Made by a program: the position numbers and the translations under genes
The notes under the pieces: model-generated
What the model saw: only the letters and a program-made list of their open reading frames with translations
Databases searched by the model: none
What the model was told of the DNA's origin: nothing
Shown: piece after piece, positions 305 through 56,158 of the stretch
How the letters are laid out: each line of letters starts with the position of its first letter
Position numbering within the stretch: position 1 is the stretch's first letter
IMG/VR virus record: IMGVR_UViG_3300036390_000001
Coordinates: 10,116-74,115 of that record
Direction: 5' to 3' (one strand)
DNA length: 64,000 bases
Source of the DNA: a virus

Positions 305-3300
305 ATGGAAGTCGGGTCAGTTTCAATTCAACTAGATTTAGAGCGCGCGGGATTTGACCGAGACATATCCTCAGTCGAGCGCACAGCCATTGACCCAATC
401 AAAGCGCCGCTTAAGTTAGAGAAAGGGGAGTTTGATAGACAGGTCAAGGGTATTGGCGATTTAATCAAACCCATAGTAGCCCCCCTCGATGCTGACACCA
501 AAGGATTGCAGCGTCAGTTATCAGGCTTAAAGCTAGATGCAATGCCCGTCCAGCTAACTCCAGACTTACAAGCTTTTAATCGCCAAATACAGAGCTACAA
601 GGCGCCAGAAGTAACCGTAAAGCTCAAAACTGACGCTTCAGAGATTAATAAAATATCTGACCAAATCACTACAGAAGTTAAAACCAAAGTAGAAGCGAAA
701 ATCAGCGTTGACGGCGGCACTAGTGGCGGTTTTAGCCCTGCGAGCATGGAAGGCGCCATTGCCAAGGGAATGCAGGGAGCGATGGAGTCTCAAGGTAGAA
801 GCTCAAAAGCTGATTCAATGGGTCAGCAGTTTACAGACTTCATGCTATCCCCTCTCAATGCTGCCTACAAGGGATTAAAAACTGTTGTTAGCGGCGCCTT
901 AGAAAATGTTGGTAAATCTTTTAGCGACTCGTTTGGTAAATCATTAGCGCAAGGGCTGGACAAAGATTTTGGCAGCGTGTTACAAAAAGCAGGTGCCAAG
1001 GTCGGAGAATCCTTCGGCTTTTTGGGCAAGGAAATAACCAGCAAAACCAAATACAAAGATTCTTTAAATAACGATACTAAAGGCAGCTTTACTGAACTAC
1101 AGCAAGACTTAAAGCCAATTGTTACCGACATCAATCAAGTAGCATCAGCATTTAAAAAAGTTGGCTTAGATATTGGTGGTTTTGCTTCCCACATTCAAAA
1201 TGCTTCTAATTCGGCACTGTCTTTAATTTCCGCATTCACTAAATTAGAAACCATTGTTTCTAAATCGTCTCTTCAACAAACGAAGTCATCAGCTACAACA
1301 GCAACACAAGGCTTTTTAACAGGCGACATTAAAAATCTCACTACAATACAAGCGCGCGGACAAGTTGACGGCGCCAGGAAGCAACTAGAATCTCAACTTA
1401 ACGAGTTAAAATCTTTACCTCAAACATCGGAAACTAGAGGCAAAGTAGCAGAGCTAATTAATCAAATATCTGAGCTTGAGCAGAAAATTGCCAATGATAT
1501 TAAAAACTCTGCAATCCCTGAATCGGTACGCAGGTCGCTAGGGAAATTAAAAGGCGCCGGAGGTAAGCTCAGTGAACTTAAGACAGAAGCCGAAAAAATG
1601 CGCTTGTCGATGGGTTCACCAACGGCGCAGCGTGATGAGTCGCAAGTTAAAGCTAGACCTAGTACGCAAAATTTAAGCTTGTACAGAGCGCAAAGTCTGC
1701 CACAGGGAGGACTCCCCGTGGCGAGCTTTGCGTCTGGTAATAGTGGCAACCGTGACAGCCTCATGGGTATTGAGCAAGAAGCAAAACTTGCTCAAGCTAA
1801 TTTCAAGCGCATTTTTAAGCAGGTTGCAAAACTCTCAGGAATGCCGTCCGAGCAATCCAAAAATGCAAACCTAGGACTGGAATTTAAAGATTTAGGCGAA
1901 GGCGTTAAAGGTGCCTATAATGCCAGAAACAACAGCGTTAGTTTAGCCAATGGCTTACAAAGTAAGCTTGCACAAGGGATTTTAAGTAAAGACGAGTTAA
2001 ATACTTTAATTCATGAAATCCGTCACGCATTACAGATTGATTTTGGGAACACGCGCGTTACAGGAATAGCAACAGGTAATCAGCGAGCAGGTGTCAAGCT
2101 ACAAGCCAAGGCGCCTGATAGCGTTAAAAAAGATGTTGATGCTTCGGTCGAAGAGTATCGACAAGCATTTAAGCAAGAGTTTGGCAAAGAACCACCACAG
2201 AAACTATTAGATACAATTCGCAAACTAGAAACTGATGCTTATGCATTTGCAGAAAAAGCGATATTCCAAATATCTCAAAACTTAGCTAAAACGCTTAAGC
2301 TTAATCCTGATAAACCAGCGCAAGCAGTTAGACCATCGCGATTACCAACTCCTCCACCTCCACCGCCAGAACTTGCAATCAATAGAAGACCTAGGGCGTC
2401 CACGTTACCTACTCCCCCTCCCCCTCCAGATTTTAAACTGCCTTTTGAATCTTCATCTAATCCGGCTCGTCGGGAACCAGAGGAATTAAAGAAAACCCTC
2501 AGATCAAACTTGCTTCGTATGAATGCAATTGCCGAACGCATTCAACAAGAGCAGCAAGAAGAATTTGGGCAATCTTACGGCATAAAAACAATAAAAGGAC
2601 TGCTCAACAATGGACAAATTCCCGACGCTGAATACAAAGCTTTAAAACGTAGCCAAGCGCAAGCAGCACAGGAATACAAAGGCGCAATTCAAGGTGGTTA
2701 CAAGCCTTTTGTTCGCTCAACGGCGATACCTATACCACCGCCACCACCAGCAATACCGCCACGTGCGCGAGAATCTATTCGACCTGAACTAGAAATTCAA
2801 AATTTACAAAATACTACCAATCAAGCAACAAAGGCATGGTGGAATGGTACTACAAACCAACTTCGCCAAATTGGTAAAGACATTAATCAAAGCTTTAATC
2901 CTAAAGTTTCTGCAAGCTCTATTAAGCTCGACAACATTAAAGCTGAAATCGAAAAAAATCAACAGTACATGGCGAAAGCCATTTCTGACCTCCAGCAAAA
3001 ACTAATAGCTGAAGGTATGAATGTTACACGCGCTAACGTCGCTAAAATGCTGCGTAGTGGACAATATTATGACCCACAATTTAATACTGCACAAGCGCGC
3101 ACTAAAGAACTTCAATTTACACGCGCGGATATTCAAAAAGGCAATCAACCCAGCATCGTTGATGGTTCTACCGGGCAGAAGCGCCTAGTAGCAGCAAACG
3201 ACCCAATATTTAAAAAGCTAGCAGATACTCAGCGCAAGCTTGACGATTCTGCTCGTAAGGCGCAAGCAGAAATACTAAAAGAGACAGGACAGCAATACAA

Positions 3301-36951: not shown

Positions 36952-37800
36952 ATGACACCACATCTTAACGCCGCGCTTGCAAAAGCCAAGCTAGAATTTC
37001 CTCAGATATTAGCTAACCGTAGAGTTAAAATACCGACTAAATCAGGTCGAGAAATTTCTTTTACCTATGCTGAATTGGAAGAAATAGCAGAAGCAGTAAC
37101 GCCAGTATTAAGCGCGAATGATTTGTCTTTGTCTTCTCAAATGCGCTATTTAGAGAATGGCAAATTTGTCCTCGCTACTGCGCTTCGTCATGGGTCGGGA
37201 GAGTTTATAGAATCCTTCTTTCCATTGCCTGAATCGGTTGGCGACGCCAAGGAACTAGGGATTCAAATCAGTTATGGGCGCCGTTACAACGCATTATGCT
37301 TACTAGAGATTAGTGTGGTTGAGCCAAGTAATGAGCAGCAATGGCAAGAAAAGAAGCGCAAGATAGCTGGTGAACTTAGACAGGAAGTTGAGCAGGCGCC
37401 GCAGTTATCCGCGAAGCCCAAGAGAGAAAATGGAGGATTGCTTGAGGCTGTTTCAGGAGTGGCGCCTGTTACCCCAAAGCCCTCGACTAAGCAAAATGAC
37501 CGTGTTAGGGCTGTTTGTGTTCAGATAAACTACCCTATGGAACTCGCGCGCGAGTGGTTGGCTAAATTTAGTCTAAAATCATTTGACCAGTTACCGTTGC
37601 AGGCTGTTGACGACTATATCAAAAACATATGCGCTGCTTGGGCAAGTCAAAACGGCATGAACGAACACCATGCCAAGCGCAGTTATGAAAAGCGCGTGGT
37701 TGGTCAACCTGACGAAATCAAGGCAATTGCTAGCTGGATGGAGTACGTAAGCTCTATTAATCTGGATGAGAAAGACTTAGTGGAGGCGCCTGCATCATGA
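36952..37800 (+). CDS. ERF-family ssDNA-annealing recombinase
   Basis: YAELEEI...V.PVL...L..Q; LRH.SGEFIES; G..ISYGRRY. Confidence 0.85.
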   Translation: MTPHLNAALAKAKLEFPQILANRRVKIPTKSGREISFTYAELEEIAEAVTPVLSANDLSLSSQMRYLENGKFVLATALRHGSGEFIESFFPLPESVGDAKELGIQISYGRRYNALCLLEISVVEPSNEQQWQEKKRKIAGELRQEVEQAPQLSAKPKRENGGLLEAVSGVAPVTPKPSTKQNDRVRAVCVQINYPMELAREWLAKFSLKSFDQLPLQAVDDYIKNICAAWASQNGMNEHHAKRSYEKRVVGQPDEIKAIASWMEYVSSINLDEKDLVEAPAS

Positions 37801-39844: not shown

Positions 39845-40135
39845 TTAAGCTGCCTCTTCACGCAGGCGCCGAATTTCCTCTTCTAGTCGCTCTTGAACTC
39901 GGCGCTCTATTATTTCATCTATTTTTTCTACTACATAGTCCGCGCGCGTGAAAGGCTTTGAAAGGAATGTATATTCTTGAAGAACATTTGTGCAATTTTC
40001 CATCAACAAGCTGTAATCGTGAAGCTCGCGCGCGACTTTGTCTAATATTAAATTGCCGCCTTCATCGCATACCAAGCGCTTCCACTCTTTTTCAAAAACT
40101 CCCATATAATCGCTCTCAGCATATTTATTTTGCAT
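39845..40135 (-). CDS. Hypothetical protein
   Basis: AAGGAG RBS. Confidence 0.6.
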   Translation of the reverse strand: MQNKYAESDYMGVFEKEWKRLVCDEGGNLILDKVARELHDYSLLMENCTNVLQEYTFLSKPFTRADYVVEKIDEIIERRVQERLEEEIRRLREEAA

Positions 40136-40481
40136 GATTAATTCTCCTTGTCCAACCTTGTTTTAATTTAGATAAATACTCTTGATTATTCGCGCTTTCA
40201 AGCACGGGATTATTAAAATCGTATTTCCAATTGCGCCTGTGATGGGCGCCTTCTTTGTGCCTGCGTGAATGATGCAATTTACACAGTGGGAAAATATGTA
40301 CTCCTGGTATTTCTCGCCCAGCTATGGCGCCGCGCTCATCAGAGTAAAGTGCGTGGTGCGCTTCGATTGCGGGAGAGTGGCAGCCAGGGTAACAGCATTT
40401 ATGGTTTGTAAGGCGCCTGCATTCCCTTGAAGTTTCGCTCCAGTTGGGCGCGTATCTTACACTGAAATCCCAAACTTTTTT
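40125..40481 (-). CDS. HNH endonuclease frame with no start codon (putative -1 frameshift extension of the ATPase)
   Basis: Hand translation RYAPNWSETSRECR...KCCYPGC...EAHH...FPLCKLHH; absent from the ORF track. Confidence 0.7.
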   Translation of the reverse strand, partial: KKVWDFSVRYAPNWSETSRECRRLTNHKCCYPGCHSPAIEAHHALYSDERGAIAGREIPGVHIFPLCKLHHSRRHKEGAHHRRNWKYDFNNPVLESANNQEYLSKLKQGWTRRINHAK

Positions 40482-41932
40482 AGTAGGTCTTTCCTGCCTC
40501 CTTGCTTTAGTGCGGTTATTATGGCGCCTTTAATTTGGTTAAAAATTTCGTCATCAGTAATATTTAAATCTTCTTTAATAAAATTATCGAGTGTTTTATT
40601 AGAGGCTTCCAACTTTGCTATTACTAGATTTGTTTGCTCATTAGTTCTTGATGTTAATTGCGCCCTTTCCTCGTCTGTAAGCGCATCGCTTTGTCCAGGT
40701 CGTTGTAAAAATTCGCGCTTATCTCTATTATAGCCAGAGTAATTTTCAAGCTCTGGGACTGGTATCCACTTATTTAATCCCCCATGAAACATGCATCTTT
40801 TTACGGGAGAGATGGCGCAAAGCTTGAGCATTTCGTTGGTGGATATTTTAGCATCTTGGGGTATTACATTTGCCTGAAGAATCAACTCTGTTTCGCTCAT
40901 TGATTCATCTTTAGCAATTAAGAAGGGAGTAAAAATTGCTTTATCCCCTCCGCTTAATTTAAGGCTATCACCGTGTCCATTTTGTGAAGCAAGGAATATT
41001 TTGATACCTGAACTATCTCCACTTGAACCATATCTTGATAATTTCCCAATCCACCATTGTATTGGCTTTGCTCCTAGTTCTTTATCCTTTGGTAACTCTG
41101 ACAAGCTAGAATTTAGTGCGGCTAATTCATTACATGCAAGGACTTTAAACCCAGTTCCCGCATCAAACTCATCATACTCTTTGATGACTTTTTTAAGCCA
41201 CTCAAAAACGTCTTTAGCGCTAGATTTGAATACTGCTTTGCGGTAGAGCTTGTCAATAACACCTTGAAAGTAACCAGTTTCTTTTGGTTCATCTTTACAG
41301 TCAAGCATGAAGATTGTTGCTTTGTCGCCATGCAATGCTTTAATGTCACGATACAAATGGGATAAGAAAAAATCTTTGCCGCTTCCAGGAACCCCATAAA
41401 CTATGATTCTGGGTGAATTTTTAGCCAAATCTTTTGTAAGGTCTGTTGGGAGTTCCTCCTTGAATTCTATTGACTCTGTATCAACAACGACTTCTAATTT
41501 ATTCGTTAATTGATTCGGCTGCTTGCTACCCTCAATTAGTTCCGGCGCCTCTACGTCCAAATAATCAAGCGCGGCATCGCTAAATTGATACTCTTCTTCT
41601 GCCGCATACTTTAATTCTTCTAGAATTGCCTCGCGCCCAACCTGTCGTGCATAGCTTCTAAAATCAGAGCCTTCCAGTACATGGGCGAGACAACCTTTGC
41701 GAACTGCCTCGAAATTATTCTCTTGGCTTCGCCCTTTCTCAAAAGCCGAAAACAGTACGTAACCAAGCACTAATGCACCAGTCAAGGGGTTGGACATAAC
41801 TCCAACCACAAGCGCGACTGCCGCGCCTCCAAAAAAATGCGCCTGTAGTCCGTTGTTGCCAACACGAGCTAAGGCGACTTGCTTCCATTCCTTTGGGTCT
41901 TTATATGTTTCCTCAACATTAAAGCTTGACAT
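40457..41932 (-). CDS. Membrane-anchored FtsK/HerA/TraD-like P-loop ATPase
   Basis: N-terminal TMs; GVPGSGKD Walker A; LDCK; LACNE Walker B variant; ASQ. Confidence 0.75.
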   Translation of the reverse strand: MSSFNVEETYKDPKEWKQVALARVGNNGLQAHFFGGAAVALVVGVMSNPLTGALVLGYVLFSAFEKGRSQENNFEAVRKGCLAHVLEGSDFRSYARQVGREAILEELKYAAEEEYQFSDAALDYLDVEAPELIEGSKQPNQLTNKLEVVVDTESIEFKEELPTDLTKDLAKNSPRIIVYGVPGSGKDFFLSHLYRDIKALHGDKATIFMLDCKDEPKETGYFQGVIDKLYRKAVFKSSAKDVFEWLKKVIKEYDEFDAGTGFKVLACNELAALNSSLSELPKDKELGAKPIQWWIGKLSRYGSSGDSSGIKIFLASQNGHGDSLKLSGGDKAIFTPFLIAKDESMSETELILQANVIPQDAKISTNEMLKLCAISPVKRCMFHGGLNKWIPVPELENYSGYNRDKREFLQRPGQSDALTDEERAQLTSRTNEQTNLVIAKLEASNKTLDNFIKEDLNITDDEIFNQIKGAIITALKQGGRKDLLKKFGISV

Positions 41933-42647
41933 TGCTAGAACCCTTCAAAAACTTGTATAACATCCAAACGCTAATCAGTACATGTACGACAATCTCTACA
42001 GCGAATAGCGTGCTGATTACTCCAAATAAATTTGCAGTGTTGATTCGGCGCCACTGCCCTAATAAAAGTAAACTTACTGCCTTATCCCAACTAACGCCAG
42101 GAATAAGTGGGTAATACCAACAACAGATAGCTAAATCGATTAAATAGGCGCCAATGCAATACAGCCACATCTGTCTCAAGAATCCATCAATAAAATTATT
42201 AAGGGTCTTCTTGGCTGATTTTATTGTTACCCCGTCGTTGTCTTTAATAGCTACATATCCATTGCTATCAGACGCGGAAACAACTGCCTCAAGAAATCCA
42301 TGATGGCGCCACAATACTCCAGGCAGGACTTCAACTATCTGAACAGGCAGCCAAATCATAAAGGCGCCTATCCACACAGTTGCATTGCCCAAAGTTCGGA
42401 AAAGGTTTCCAATTAGCGGCAACCACAGAACAAATGCCATGAAGCCATTCTTAACAAACTCGGCACCTGCGTTGTCGAGTAAAGCTTTGTATGGCGCGAT
42501 GTTCATTGCTGCGAACCAAACAAGCGCGGCGCCTGCACCCGCATAAAGGCAAAGGATAAAAATATCCAGTAGTCCAAAAGATTTACCGCGCTTGCGTTTA
42601 CTGCCAAATCCAGTTTGCATTATTGCTCCTTGATGGGTGTATTCCAA
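41919..42647 (-). CDS. Multi-pass membrane protein
   Basis: 4-5 hydrophobic helices; coupled to the ATPase gene. Confidence 0.7.
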   Translation of the reverse strand: MEYTHQGAIMQTGFGSKRKRGKSFGLLDIFILCLYAGAGAALVWFAAMNIAPYKALLDNAGAEFVKNGFMAFVLWLPLIGNLFRTLGNATVWIGAFMIWLPVQIVEVLPGVLWRHHGFLEAVVSASDSNGYVAIKDNDGVTIKSAKKTLNNFIDGFLRQMWLYCIGAYLIDLAICCWYYPLIPGVSWDKAVSLLLLGQWRRINTANLFGVISTLFAVEIVVHVLISVWMLYKFLKGSSNVKL

Positions 42648-43147
42648 TAAACGCGCGCTTTTGACCCAGCTATGCGCCGAATATTTTTATCAACTAATTC
42701 CTTTGAACCTCCCGCTGCAATATCCAGCGCCACAGGAGTTCCTTCTTGATTTTCTCTGAGTATTGCGGTTTCGCCGTTGGCACCTACTACACAAGTCCCT
42801 GCTACCAAGTACGATTTATTCGTGCGGTCACGAACTGGTGCCGCTTTTTGTAAAGGCACGAGGTTGAAGTAAGTAAACTCACCAACCTTCTTGGAGTTGG
42901 GGTCAACCACTGGAATACAACCGCGCGATAGTCGAGCATCTGCTATTTTTGCTTGCTCGGCAAGGTTATCTTCGCTCATCTCCAACATAGTTTGGTAATT
43001 GGCTTGCCTCTCTAGCTCAATACGCATGTTCTCCATATTGGTCATGTTCCGCGCAATACCTTTGTGGTTAAGTGCAAGCGAACCAACAATTAAGGTGCCG
43101 AATATTATCCTTGACTTATTGCGGCGCCAAAATCTATTCCTCATCAC
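42620..43147 (-). CDS. Single-TM protein with soluble Cys-containing domain
   Basis: N-terminal TM and coiled-coil; R..RGC, GTCVVG..G.TA. Confidence 0.65.
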   Translation of the reverse strand: MMRNRFWRRNKSRIIFGTLIVGSLALNHKGIARNMTNMENMRIELERQANYQTMLEMSEDNLAEQAKIADARLSRGCIPVVDPNSKKVGEFTYFNLVPLQKAAPVRDRTNKSYLVAGTCVVGANGETAILRENQEGTPVALDIAAGGSKELVDKNIRRIAGSKARVYWNTPIKEQ

Positions 43148-43800
43148 TACCTCCCGCTGTACTTTTGTACCAAAGCCTTTACCAACCCCTTTGAGTCTTT
43201 CGCGGTAACAGGCGCCTTACTCAATTCCTTACCCGCTGACACTTCTGCTAAAAATGCAGTTGGGTCGAAGTCTGTAATTTCTTCTTGATATGCCTTGGCG
43301 TGGTTAGCCGTTTTAAAATCATCAATACCGTACTCTGTGAGAATTTTATTTAAGGCGCCGTGGTCATTAAGTAACCTAAATAGCGCCTCTGATTGCTGAG
43401 TGTTTAACCCTGCTTGCTGCCGAAGGTAATCAAATTCCAACTGCGCGCGCGTCTTCTCTGTGGCCGCTACTTCCAATTGATGAAGCGCAACGCCTCTGGT
43501 TATGCCGCGCTCTAAAAATACTTGTACTATGTTTTCGACGGCGCCGGGGTTCACAGTAATTCCTCTTTCTTCTGCGATGTCAACTGCTAATGATGAGGTT
43601 AGCGCGCGCTGTTTATCAAACGCTTCTACCACCACCTCGAACACACTTTCTAATTGCTCGGTTATATGGTCGCTAAATTCGGCGCCTTGCGGGTTTACCG
43701 TTGTGTCATATTTAGCCAACTCGGTGAGCGCTTTTTCTACAGTTGGCGCCTCGTATCTATCCGCAAAATATTCAAATAACTCTTGGCGTGTAAAGCTCAT
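43147..43800 (-). CDS. Hypothetical helical protein
   Basis: GGGGG RBS; operonic. Confidence 0.65.
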   Translation of the reverse strand: MSFTRQELFEYFADRYEAPTVEKALTELAKYDTTVNPQGAEFSDHITEQLESVFEVVVEAFDKQRALTSSLAVDIAEERGITVNPGAVENIVQVFLERGITRGVALHQLEVAATEKTRAQLEFDYLRQQAGLNTQQSEALFRLLNDHGALNKILTEYGIDDFKTANHAKAYQEEITDFDPTAFLAEVSAGKELSKAPVTAKDSKGLVKALVQKYSGR

Positions 43801-43902: not shown

Positions 43903-44268
43903 TTATTCTGATTGCTCATGGGCGTTAATCCAGTTGTTGAATTTTTCTCTCGTTAGGTTCGGCGCCTGTTTCTTTAACCAGTCCTTTGTCTCTTGGTTGT
44001 CGCGCTTCTTACCATCACACCACCCCTTCTTTAGCGCGTGAATAATCGCCAAGATAAAACGTTGATAATTGTCAAGAAACTTTGATTTTTGGTACTCCTT
44101 GAGAATTGGGAACACGAGACGAATAATCCCTGACTCCCATCTCCAGATTGAAGTGCGGTCACGACCAAGAACTAATGCCCATTCTTCGCGCGATTGGTAA
44201 AAATCCTTGAAATAGGCGCCGAGACTGCTTTTTGATTCCAATATTTCTAATATTTTTTCATGCTGCAT
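43903..44268 (-). CDS. HTH-like DNA-binding protein
   Basis: SREEWALVLGRDRTSIWRWE. Confidence 0.6.
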   Translation of the reverse strand: MQHEKILEILESKSSLGAYFKDFYQSREEWALVLGRDRTSIWRWESGIIRLVFPILKEYQKSKFLDNYQRFILAIIHALKKGWCDGKKRDNQETKDWLKKQAPNLTREKFNNWINAHEQSE

Positions 44269-54565: not shown

Positions 54566-56158
54566 TTACCACATGGCAGTGTTCTCACCCCACACGGATA
54601 CTTCAGGTTGAGCAAAGCAATAAACAACAGCATCTCCGCAATCAGGAGAGCGCCCAATCCGCTTTTTGATATCGTCTTTGGCTTCAACTTGAATATCGTT
54701 ACCGGGTGTAATTTTCCAACGCGGCGCCGTTAAATCTGCCAGCAATTCTTTATCGGGTGGTAGTGCTATATTGTCGCCATGTTCAGGGTCAAGCGCTTCT
54801 CTCAGGCGCCAGTACCATTCCGCGCGCTTGTTTCTAAAGCCGAACTTGCCGCTGCGGTCGCGCTCGTTTGAACCGTCGCCACCTGAACAGGCGTACACAT
54901 TTAAACCGCGCTCAACGCATCGGTCATAGGGTGAAGAACCAATGCCCGTTACGTCGATGCTGGCGTAAGCTTCGCCAAATAGGTTGACCGCTACCAAGTC
55001 AGCCACGGATTTACCATCAGGTGTTGACTTGCCTGCCTTTTTAATTAGCGTGTCAACATAGCGACCATAACGAGGCGCCAGTGTAGTTTTATCATTGCCT
55101 CCGCGCGCTGGGTCAACCCCCAAGGAAGTTAATGGTATTGAGGCGCCGCGCTCGTCAACTGGCTTTTGAGATGTCCAGCGCGCTTGTGCCGCTTCCACCC
55201 ACTCAGTTGGTATTAGCTGCCACGGGTCATCTTCGATACCTGCCGAGAAGTCACCTTTGAGCATTTGGCTGCGTAAAGGTTCGGGCAACGATGCCAAAAC
55301 CGACTTGTAATTGGTTTTAGCGTAGTAAGGATTGTCGTCAATCTTTGCTGGTATGAAGGTGCGACTACGCGGTTTAATCCACTCACCATTAATAAGTACT
55401 GGGTCGTCGTTTGGGACTTCGACATCTCGACCTTCGGGCGAATCGTCATCGCTAATTACAACAAACCAGCGCAATTCTCCAGGTATAGCAGGGTTGGGAT
55501 GCTTAGGGTCTAACCACGGCGCCCAATATTCAATCACCCATCTACCTTCGGCTGTCGTTGGTGGGTTGCCAGTGGCTAAAGTACGCGCGCGCTGGTTCTC
55601 GTCAGCTGTACGGTTCCACCCTGAAAGAAACTTATACTGAAACTTTGAGAAATGGCAAATTTCATCAAAAATTTTTAAGTCGTGAGCGCGTCCTTGGTAC
55701 TTCTCAACGTCCTCTTCGTATTGACAGGCGCCGAACTCTAATATTCTGCCATCATTTAGCGTCCAAGTCTTCTCGGTACTGTTATATTTACCGTGCTTTT
55801 TAATGATTTTCTTCGAGCGCTGGACTATGCCTTTAAGCTGCGGATACTCGCGCCGAAATATGATTGAATTCTGATGGGAAGTGAGCGCTAGACCAAGCGC
55901 GAGGTCGGTCTTACCCCCGTTAGTAGGGGTCTATTTAGAAGTGACAAATATGCTTAAATACAAGCAATAAAATATACCTAAAACGCCAGCAGCGCCTCCG
56001 TACAGTACTTCGTCCGAAAGCGAGGTGAATGCCATTGTTTGCGGGCCTGGTAACGGCGACCAGATGGGTTCGGACTGCGGTGGCGCTTTTTTCTTTGAAC
56101 CCATCCATTTGTCTAGTTTATTTAATGTCTTATCTATGTTCTGCAAGGACTCCAGCAT
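54566..56158 (-). CDS. terL: Terminase large subunit, interrupted: join(56158..55985, 55918..54566), 508 aa
   Basis: EVLYGGAAG|GGKTDL Walker A, LKIFDE Walker B, TGNP, GVDPARGGND and SPDCGDA nuclease motifs. Confidence 0.9.
55919..55984 (-). other. 66-nt intervening sequence in the terL Walker A motif
   Basis: In frame, contains TAG, ~29% GC, self-complementary. Confidence 0.88.

Follow-up and report, generated by a model that had tools for sequence, protein, structure and literature searches.

We describe here a candidate recoded gene of a cyanobacterial prophage, in which the end of a reading frame for a DNA-translocase-like ATPase overlaps the beginning of an HNH nuclease frame that has no start codon. 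It lies on the minus strand of a 64,000 nt stretch of the virus record IMGVR_UViG_3300036390_000001 (record positions 10,116-74,115; this whole stretch is referred to as the window, and its coordinates are used unless another contig is named). The surrounding DNA is a prophage of a filamentous-type cyanobacterium, and the window consists of phage or prophage DNA. The zero-frame ATPase open reading frame (ORF; product P0001, 491 aa) occupies 41932-40457 and ends ...RKDLLKKFGISV*, that is, ...R K D L L K K F G I S V TAA. Among these last codons, at 40481-40475, is the slippery heptamer A_AAA_AAG, which is read in the zero frame as CTA AAA AAG (40483-40475) in the X_XXY_YYZ register, and the ATPase TAA (40459-40457) is situated five codons past it.

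The HNH frame is in the -1 register relative to the ATPase. A TAA at 40532-40530 closes it upstream, such that it is open from 40529, and the stretch in which a shift could enter it is 40529-40475. Between 40529 and the conserved domain, which starts two to three residues past the heptamer, the frame contains no ATG, GTG, TTG, CTG, ATT, ATC or ATA, and its first canonical start is a TTG at 40277, inside the domain, with no earlier ATG, GTG or TTG. From G40475 the frame reads V W D F S V R Y A P N W... and continues for 116 codons to a TAA at 40127-40125 (P0002, 40475-40125), and the predicted fusion of 486 + 116 = 602 aa has the junction ...DLLKK|VWDFSVRYAPNW. An earlier note on this DNA had claimed a startless HNH frame of ~118 codons with a TAA just upstream, an A_AAA_AAG within the last ATPase codons, and exact entry into the HNH frame upon a -1 slip; these claims hold as made, the heptamer being in the zero-frame register and the point of entry being confirmed by reading the frame from G40475.

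A purine-rich Shine-Dalgarno (SD)-like tract, AAGGAGGCAGGA, is located upstream at 40503-40492, and contains a GGAGG (40501-40497) ending 15 nt, and an AGGA (40495-40492) ending 10 nt, 5' of the heptamer, in agreement with the 10-15 nt previously noted. Stimulation of -1 shifts by SD-like sequences operates at spacings of 9-14 nt (PMC5009743), and this spacing from the shift site is seen both for the AGGA and for the GGGAGGA of the paralogous locus described below, which also ends 10 nt 5' of its heptamer. The 3' end of the 16S rRNA was not found in the assembly. The anti-SD sequence of the 16S rRNA is assumed to be present.

The -1 frame encodes a real HNH (beta-beta-alpha-Me) nuclease domain, as judged from its structural model. 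The AlphaFold model of P0002, built with an alignment of 18 relatives, has a pLDDT of 95, and its top structural matches (VIA-align) are all HNH proteins, with Cap5 (Z 7.2) and Cas5-HNH (Z 7.0) followed by McrA, the GVE2 HNH and the Cas9/IscB HNH domains. Thirty-one chains have a Z score of at least 5, and among the 50 entries listed the sole non-HNH row is 9hmp_C (Z 3.2, rank 34). Residues C27, C32, H40, H41, C65, H69 and H78 are invariant over 18 family members, with the zinc site formed by C27, C32, C65 and H69. P0002 has no Pfam, NCBIfam or PADLOC match, and its only profile relationship is a weak one to PHROG 119 'HNH endonuclease' (E 1.1e-3), with one relative matching DUF968 (E 0.033); the model, the structural matches and the conserved CCCH zinc ligands and His-His motif nonetheless bear out the nuclease identity that had been assigned from the letters alone.

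P0001 is, according to its model and to profile comparisons, a membrane-anchored, translocase-like P-loop ATPase of the FtsK/HerA type. It has an N-terminal hydrophobic hairpin at approximately residues 28-64 and a Walker A motif GVPGSGK at approximately 180-186, and G180, G185, K186 and the acidic Walker B residue E269 are invariant in 23 homologues. The model has a pLDDT of 82, with the core at about 90, and its Foldseek matches include TcpA (6o1x_A, E 1.4e-5), the FtsK motor, STIV2 B204 and EccC, with E values of 1e-5 to 2e-4, although Rho scores equally. The Atlas structural neighbours are FtsK/SpoIIIE proteins, and a profile of the 23-member family compared by hhalign with an alignment containing Pfam-certified FtsK_SpoIIIE fusion proteins gives a probability of 97.3% (E 1.6e-11, 177 columns). 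The relationship to the natural fusion proteins is seen solely by such profile-profile comparison, phmmer of P0001 against them finding nothing. P0001 falls below the Pfam gathering threshold for FtsK_SpoIIIE and DUF87 with only sub-threshold generic NTPase matches, it has no NCBIfam or PADLOC family, and its family profile finds only generic P-loop matches among PDB sequences. Because of the FtsK/HerA structure and profile matches, the label of DNA-translocase-like ATPase used in the earlier note is a fair one.

A second copy of the locus in the same genome, on contig C80 (L004, G000:C80), provides the most informative comparison. Its ATPase is 53-56% and its HNH 75% identical at the amino acid level to the window copy, and its ATPase has the C-terminal residues ...R K D L L K K F N L G T T Q followed by TAA; CTA AAA AAG is at contig positions 3022-3030, which puts the heptamer at 3024-3030 in the identical register. 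The HNH is again in the -1 frame and startless before the domain, with 114 codons compared to 116 in the window, and both copies keep all of the catalytic and zinc residues. The purine tract 10-11 nt before the heptamer is formed in both copies with the Arg codon AGG, the rarest for this amino acid (5.3% of Arg), despite the saturation of synonymous sites. Conservation of the heptamer, which had been proposed as a check of the arrangement, is thus seen together with the SD-like tract in the only close paralogue. The ATPase pair has a dS of 3.5 and a dN/dS of 0.11, and the HNH pair has a dN of 0.18 with dS saturated, and since synonymous sites are saturated the identical heptamer is not a relic of a recent duplication.

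Comparison of the two copies indicates that both the ATPase and the HNH frames are under purifying selection, and that constraint switches from one reading frame to the other at the heptamer. Just upstream of it, the differences GAC/GAT and CTA/TTA cause no amino acid change in the ATPase frame and exchange Pro and Phe in the HNH frame; just downstream, GAT/GAC, AGT/TCA (Ser), AGA/AGG, TAC/TAT, GCG/GCC and a 6 nt indel leave the HNH-frame product unchanged or alter it conservatively, and the ATPase-frame tails past the heptamer diverge (GISV* vs NLGTTQ*).

The heptamer pattern at the HNH locus exceeds chance. In-frame A_AAA_AAG occurs 225 times in ORFs of at least 200 aa genome-wide, with a median open -1 run of 7 codons following it, and in only five of the 225 does the -1 frame remain open for 100 codons or more. 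Two of these are the HNH locus and its paralogue, and the other three are ordinary neighbour genes that start within 0-12 codons. The heptamer sites with long -1 ORFs on contigs C81, C82 and C91 were considered as frameshift candidates and rejected because of these normal starts. We note that at the C82 site (G000:C82:100205-102918) a 235-aa ORF has an in-frame A_AAA_AAG two codons before its stop, and the -1 frame then carries a P-loop (NACHT-like) ORF of 671 codons; the first start of the latter is a GTG 12 codons on, and the overlap is probably ordinary.

The heptamer is also not an automatic consequence of the protein sequence, since by chance no more than 4.5% of the KK dipeptides in this genome take this form. 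LxKKF is the native C-terminal motif of the P0001 ATPase family, and in homologues that lack a following startless HNH it is written with ATC AAG AAA (L033 and L035), GCA AAG (L034 and L110), GAG AAG (L106 and L108), GAG AAA (L107), AGC AAG (L051 and L117), or CTC AAA AAA (L062). A_AAA_AAG is absent from at least nine homologous ATPase tails without the startless -1 arrangement, and is present in both of the loci of this genome that have it.

These features point to the ATPase and HNH frames being a single gene recoded by -1 ribosomal frameshifting of the IS3 orfAB/dnaX type, which we consider the probable explanation. Most ribosomes would translate the ATPase to its TAA and yield the 491-aa membrane-anchored, FtsK/HerA-like motor subunit. 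A fraction would slip by -1 with the Lys tRNAs on A_AAA_AAG, probably aided by pairing of the 16S anti-SD to the purine tract 10-15 nt upstream, and would continue in the HNH frame to give a 602-aa ATPase-HNH protein (...DLLKK-VWDFSVRY...). If the ATPase forms a ring, by analogy with its superfamily, then the outcome would be a membrane DNA pump with nuclease on some of its subunits. The slippage and how often it happens, a contribution of the SD-like tract, the oligomeric state and the function are inferred from the sequence and from analogy, and the fixed ratio of the two products suggested in the earlier note is conjectural.

Several observations weigh against frameshifting. A_AAA_AAG is not depleted genome-wide, being carried by 185 of 3578 long ORFs, and because of this the bare heptamer is probably only weakly shifty in this genome; 4.5% of KK dipeptides are written as A_AAA_AAG, compared to 4.8% expected, and since the heptamer is this common and not avoided it proves little on its own. 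In E. coli, the high slipperiness of AAG is tied to the presence of a single tRNA-Lys (PMC5009743), and a corresponding situation, in which AAG is read solely by tRNA-Lys(UUU), is not seen here, ARAGORN reporting one tRNA-Lys(CUU) alongside three tRNA-Lys(UUU). There is also no stable or conserved stem-loop or pseudoknot in either copy at the stimulatory distance of 5-9 nt past the heptamer. Efficient dnaX and IS3 sites usually carry such a downstream structure. Folding energies downstream are those of shuffled sequences (z of 0.17, -0.06, 0.08 and 1.41 over both copies, the window copy accounting for 0.17 and 0.08), and the TTTCAGT/ACTGGAG stem suggested in the earlier note did not survive: it can be drawn with 7 bp, including two G-U pairs, but it is outside the minimum-energy fold, its 5' arm is non-complementary in the paralogue, and the z of the region is about 0. 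Conservation of the shift site rests on two paralogues in one genome, and most of the relatives with no more than 57% identity give the HNH its own ATG, GTG or TTG overlapping the ATPase end, without a slippery site. Finally, the sole sequencing run containing the locus is of DNA contigs, with no RNA run, and the fusion protein stays a predicted one.

A different reading of the same locus is that the HNH frame is untranslated, being the silenced remnant of a separate overlapping gene that has lost its start, with the heptamer a by-product of the conserved Lys-Lys pair. This is in keeping with the separate HNH start in most homologues, with the conservation of KK in the ATPase family and the frequency of A_AAA_AAG in an AT-rich genome, and with the existence of a decaying pair elsewhere (L024, with stops in both genes). 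However, stop-free frames of 116 and 114 codons with catalytic and zinc residues intact have persisted despite the saturated synonymous divergence, and selection is also seen on the codons that follow the heptamer and precede the first possible start. Purifying selection on both frames argues that the startless HNH is no dead remnant, and we regard this explanation as unlikely.

We likewise assign a low probability to expression of a small, separate HNH protein, either by non-canonical initiation or by re-initiation after the ATPase TAA, with GGAGG/AGGA serving as the ribosome-binding site. An initiation site could well make use of the SD-like tract, and overlapping separate HNH genes are the commonest arrangement among the relatives. 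What is lacking is a codon at which to begin: the startless interval from 40529 to the domain excludes even CTG, ATT, ATC and ATA, the sole near-cognate codon in the paralogue (ATA) is not shared by the window copy, and starting at the TTG at 40277 would drop the first Cys pair and the His-His motif. Other explanations, including those that we do not recognize, are together given a similarly small chance.

Transcriptional slippage would generate the identical fusion protein, the polymerase adding one A in the A6 run to give an mRNA reading CTA AAA AAA GTT..., and it accommodates the product and all of the comparative evidence equally well; slippage on A/T runs is an established alternative to frameshifting (reviewed in PMC5009743), and the relative L024 has an A7 at the equivalent junction. 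Two considerations make it quite improbable, namely that appreciable slippage is known from runs of about 8-9 A's or more, longer than A6, and that conservation includes the final G of the heptamer and the register-specific CTA, as expected for tandem slippage by the ribosome and not needed by a polymerase. An assembly or sequencing error, in which the true run is A7 and the gene a plain in-frame ATPase-HNH fusion, is very improbable, because although homopolymers invite errors and other cyanobacteria do have plain fusions, A6 is present in both diverged loci of the assembly and a Logan unitig (39924-40819, k-mer depth ~16000, which may share its data set with the assembly) matches without an indel; the loss of a start codon through such an error, which the earlier note had listed as a possible objection, is unlikely on the same grounds.

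The distribution of the HNH family places -1 frameshifting in context. Of 389 genomes from the same GTDB family, 94 contain it, often in multiple copies, and it is found as well in other cyanobacteria, metagenomes and IMG/VR viral contigs, and the P0001 ATPase family is present on 13 IMG/VR contigs. Of 72 loci for which the HNH frame was compared to a long upstream ORF, 22 have the HNH in the -1 frame, 17 in the +1 frame and three in the frame of that ORF, and at the remaining 30 there is either no long upstream ORF ending nearby or the contig ends. Where examined, the upstream ORF encodes a P-loop ATPase that is FtsK/HerA-like or P0001-like, and the overlaps range from ~20 to 200 nt. In L033, L035, L106 and L108 the HNH is upstream of the ATPase instead. 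The pairing of HNH and ATPase thus appears from these loci to be conserved and the mode of coupling not. A separate HNH start is used by most relatives, so that function does not require a fusion, and because those relatives (at 57% identity or less) also have no slippery site, recoding, if real, is on this comparison specific to this lineage and not characteristic of the family. The earlier note had proposed that homologues with an ordinary start and no slippery site would count against it; the distant homologues are indeed of this kind, but the close paralogue keeps the startless slippery arrangement. The closest outside relatives are the HNH P0004, at 68% identity, and the ATPases P0175 and P0177-P0182, which end ...RKDLLKKF....

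In-frame fusions, the other check that had been proposed, are present in homologues. Nine of the best 150 cluster representatives are proteins of 453-757 aa with this HNH inside a longer protein, from Trichocoleus spp. (including WP_190552679.1) and a Vampirovibrionales metagenome-assembled genome (MAG), and four of the nine pass the Pfam FtsK_SpoIIIE threshold. The HNH is C-terminal in eight of the nine, with P0003 having a further extension after it. We also note a 358-aa protein (P0091) in which an HNH of this family is apparently fused N-terminally to a multi-pass membrane protein resembling the 242-aa protein of the cassette described below; the likeness is one local stretch judged by eye without an alignment, and if it holds, this fusion links all three cassette components.

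Startless HNH frames are found at five loci, the window copy, its paralogue, L066, L085 and L062. At L066 (G474:C3) and L085 (G500:C86), A_AAG_GGG is situated in the ATPase zero frame exactly where the -1 HNH frame opens, and sister loci (e.g. L072) have an ATG 45 codons further upstream instead. L062 (G423:C13, HNH match 117131-117484, minus strand) is different in that a P0001-type ATPase (33% identity) runs ...RKDLLKKFGLDGT, TGA, LNPYAVRYAANW... in a single frame, with the startless HNH separated from it by a TGA followed by C. TGA-C is the weakest termination context in E. coli. L062 is either a candidate for stop-codon readthrough or a nonsense-interrupted fusion, and it is, from its sequence, a second arrangement that would require recoding to yield an ATPase-HNH fusion. 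Because of the arrangements at L066, L085 and L062, the sequences suggest that appending the HNH to the C-terminus of some of the ATPase molecules has been arrived at repeatedly. A further reading is that this membrane pump cassette of cyanobacterial phages and plasmids needs its nuclease on the motor ring at a controlled, often sub-stoichiometric dosage, and that this is provided interchangeably by overlapping genes with separate starts, by fusion, by a leaky UGA (G423), or by a -1 shift at A_AAA_AAG (twice in this genome) or A_AAG_GGG (L066 and L085), so that recoding would set the composition of a hetero-hexameric translocase-nuclease; we consider this less likely than not.

Two further loci have related junctions. 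In a same-genus relative (L032/L109; G302:C7 and IMGVR_UViG_2507262048_000001) the HNH starts with an ATG of its own in the -1 frame relative to the ATPase and shares 103 nt with it, and the ATPase ends CTA AAA AAC AAA..., with A_AAA_AAC in register inside the overlap. The decaying pair L024 (G111:C132) is interrupted by a stop in the ATPase and by a TGA in the HNH, and its A7 run at the junction is in the +1 register.

The ATPase and HNH are the last two genes of a six-gene minus-strand cassette, which in order encodes proteins of 121 aa (43903-44268), 217 aa (43147-43800) and 175 aa (42620-43147), a 242-aa multi-pass membrane protein (41919-42647) whose gene overlaps the ATPase start, the ATPase, and the HNH. 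None of the four proteins upstream of the ATPase matched a family of Pfam, NCBIfam or PADLOC. The second copy on C80 has the same gene order, with identities of 79, 53 (N-terminal part), 45, 29, 53 and 75% respectively, and homologues of the 242-aa membrane protein precede the ATPase on both C80 and C31. The C31 locus (L005, G000:C31:207187-208746) is a third, distant ATPase paralogue (26-29% identity), in which the 242-aa-type membrane protein is kept upstream and there is no HNH; its ATPase is followed by a response-regulator/GGDEF-type gene on the opposite strand. Directly after the window HNH is a 96-aa ORF (39845-40135, minus strand) whose ATG overlaps the HNH stop, and which in a nucleotide search of the plasmid collection has a 72% match to hypothetical genes on two Calothrix plasmids. 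The ATPase-HNH segment has no nucleotide match in the phage or plasmid collections, this downstream ORF being the only part of the segment searched that did.

The genome has a GC content of 39%, and phage genes in the window include Erf (36952-37800), a TerL fragment (54566-55537), and genes for a sigma factor, a ParB-like protein and an endolysin. Because an ordinary TerL is present elsewhere in the prophage, the cassette ATPase is not the packaging motor, and the cassette may act in DNA transfer along filaments, in exclusion of incoming DNA, or in some other role.

Automatic annotation misses the nuclease here because its frame has no start codon, and recognizing it shifts the reading of the cassette from a pump alone to a pump able also to cut DNA. 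A literature search combining FtsK, HNH, cyanobacteria and frameshift did not find the arrangement described; the recoding signal is of a textbook kind, and the gene pair, its prophage setting and the variety of coupling modes are, according to that search, undescribed. If frameshifting is correct, this is a case of -1 recoding in a cyanobacterial prophage that involves neither a transposon nor a tail chaperone, and it offers an experimental handle on an abundant, unstudied cassette (FtsK-like ATPase, HNH and small membrane proteins) of the phages and plasmids of filamentous cyanobacteria. The separate, fused, stop-interrupted and frameshifted versions that exist side by side in the family would allow a direct test of whether the nuclease dosage per motor ring matters.

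The proposed frameshift resembles those of the IS3 family (IS911, IS150 and IS3) in having a zero-frame A_AAA_AAG a few codons before the upstream stop, a startless downstream frame, an upstream SD-like element, and a longer fusion beside a short zero-frame product, as predicted here. It differs in that we detect no downstream stem-loop or pseudoknot, and in that the pair is a membrane motor ATPase and an HNH in a prophage cassette, and not a transposase. E. coli dnaX (tau/gamma) has the same heptamer, an SD-like stimulator ~10 nt upstream, and two versions of an ATPase from one gene, as is predicted for P0001, and the two dnaX subunit versions co-assemble in one complex. However, the shifted product is the shorter one in dnaX, a strong hairpin is essential there for ~50% efficiency, and the tRNA-Lys(CUU) of this genome has no counterpart in E. 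coli, with its single tRNA-Lys.

The natural FtsK/SpoIIIE-HNH fusions of cyanobacteria (for example Trichocoleus sp. FACHB-591 WP_190552679.1, and the MAG proteins HEY9697057.1, HEY9699678.1 and HEY9835449.1) share the domain order of the predicted product, with an N-terminal membrane segment, an FtsK/HerA-type ATPase and a C-terminal HNH of this family; the ATPase cores are homologous (hhalign 97%) and the proteins are of similar size (542-757 aa vs the predicted 602 aa). These are uncharacterised, ordinary single ORFs named by domain alone, and they would place a nuclease on every subunit. TcpA of the Clostridium perfringens plasmid pCW3 (PDB 6o1x/6o1w) and Streptomyces TraB are likewise membrane-anchored FtsK-type ATPases on mobile elements, and TcpA is among the best structural matches of the P0001 model, although identity over the core is 18-19%, no relaxase, clt-like site or Tcp partners are recognized here, and an HNH nuclease is neither part of TcpA or TraB nor coupled to them.

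A ring or motor ATPase of the ASCE class acting on DNA with a dedicated nuclease is also seen in archaeal HerA-NurA, in phage large terminases, where ATPase and nuclease are fused, and in the HK97-type HNH protein (gp74) with its terminase, although the NurA and terminase nucleases have RNase-H-like folds and not HNH. In HerA-NurA the nuclease is sub-stoichiometric per ATPase ring (PMC3326311). By analogy with ring ATPases and with HerA-NurA-like pairs, a pump in which some of the subunits bear a nuclease would be a reasonable expectation for the product of this locus.

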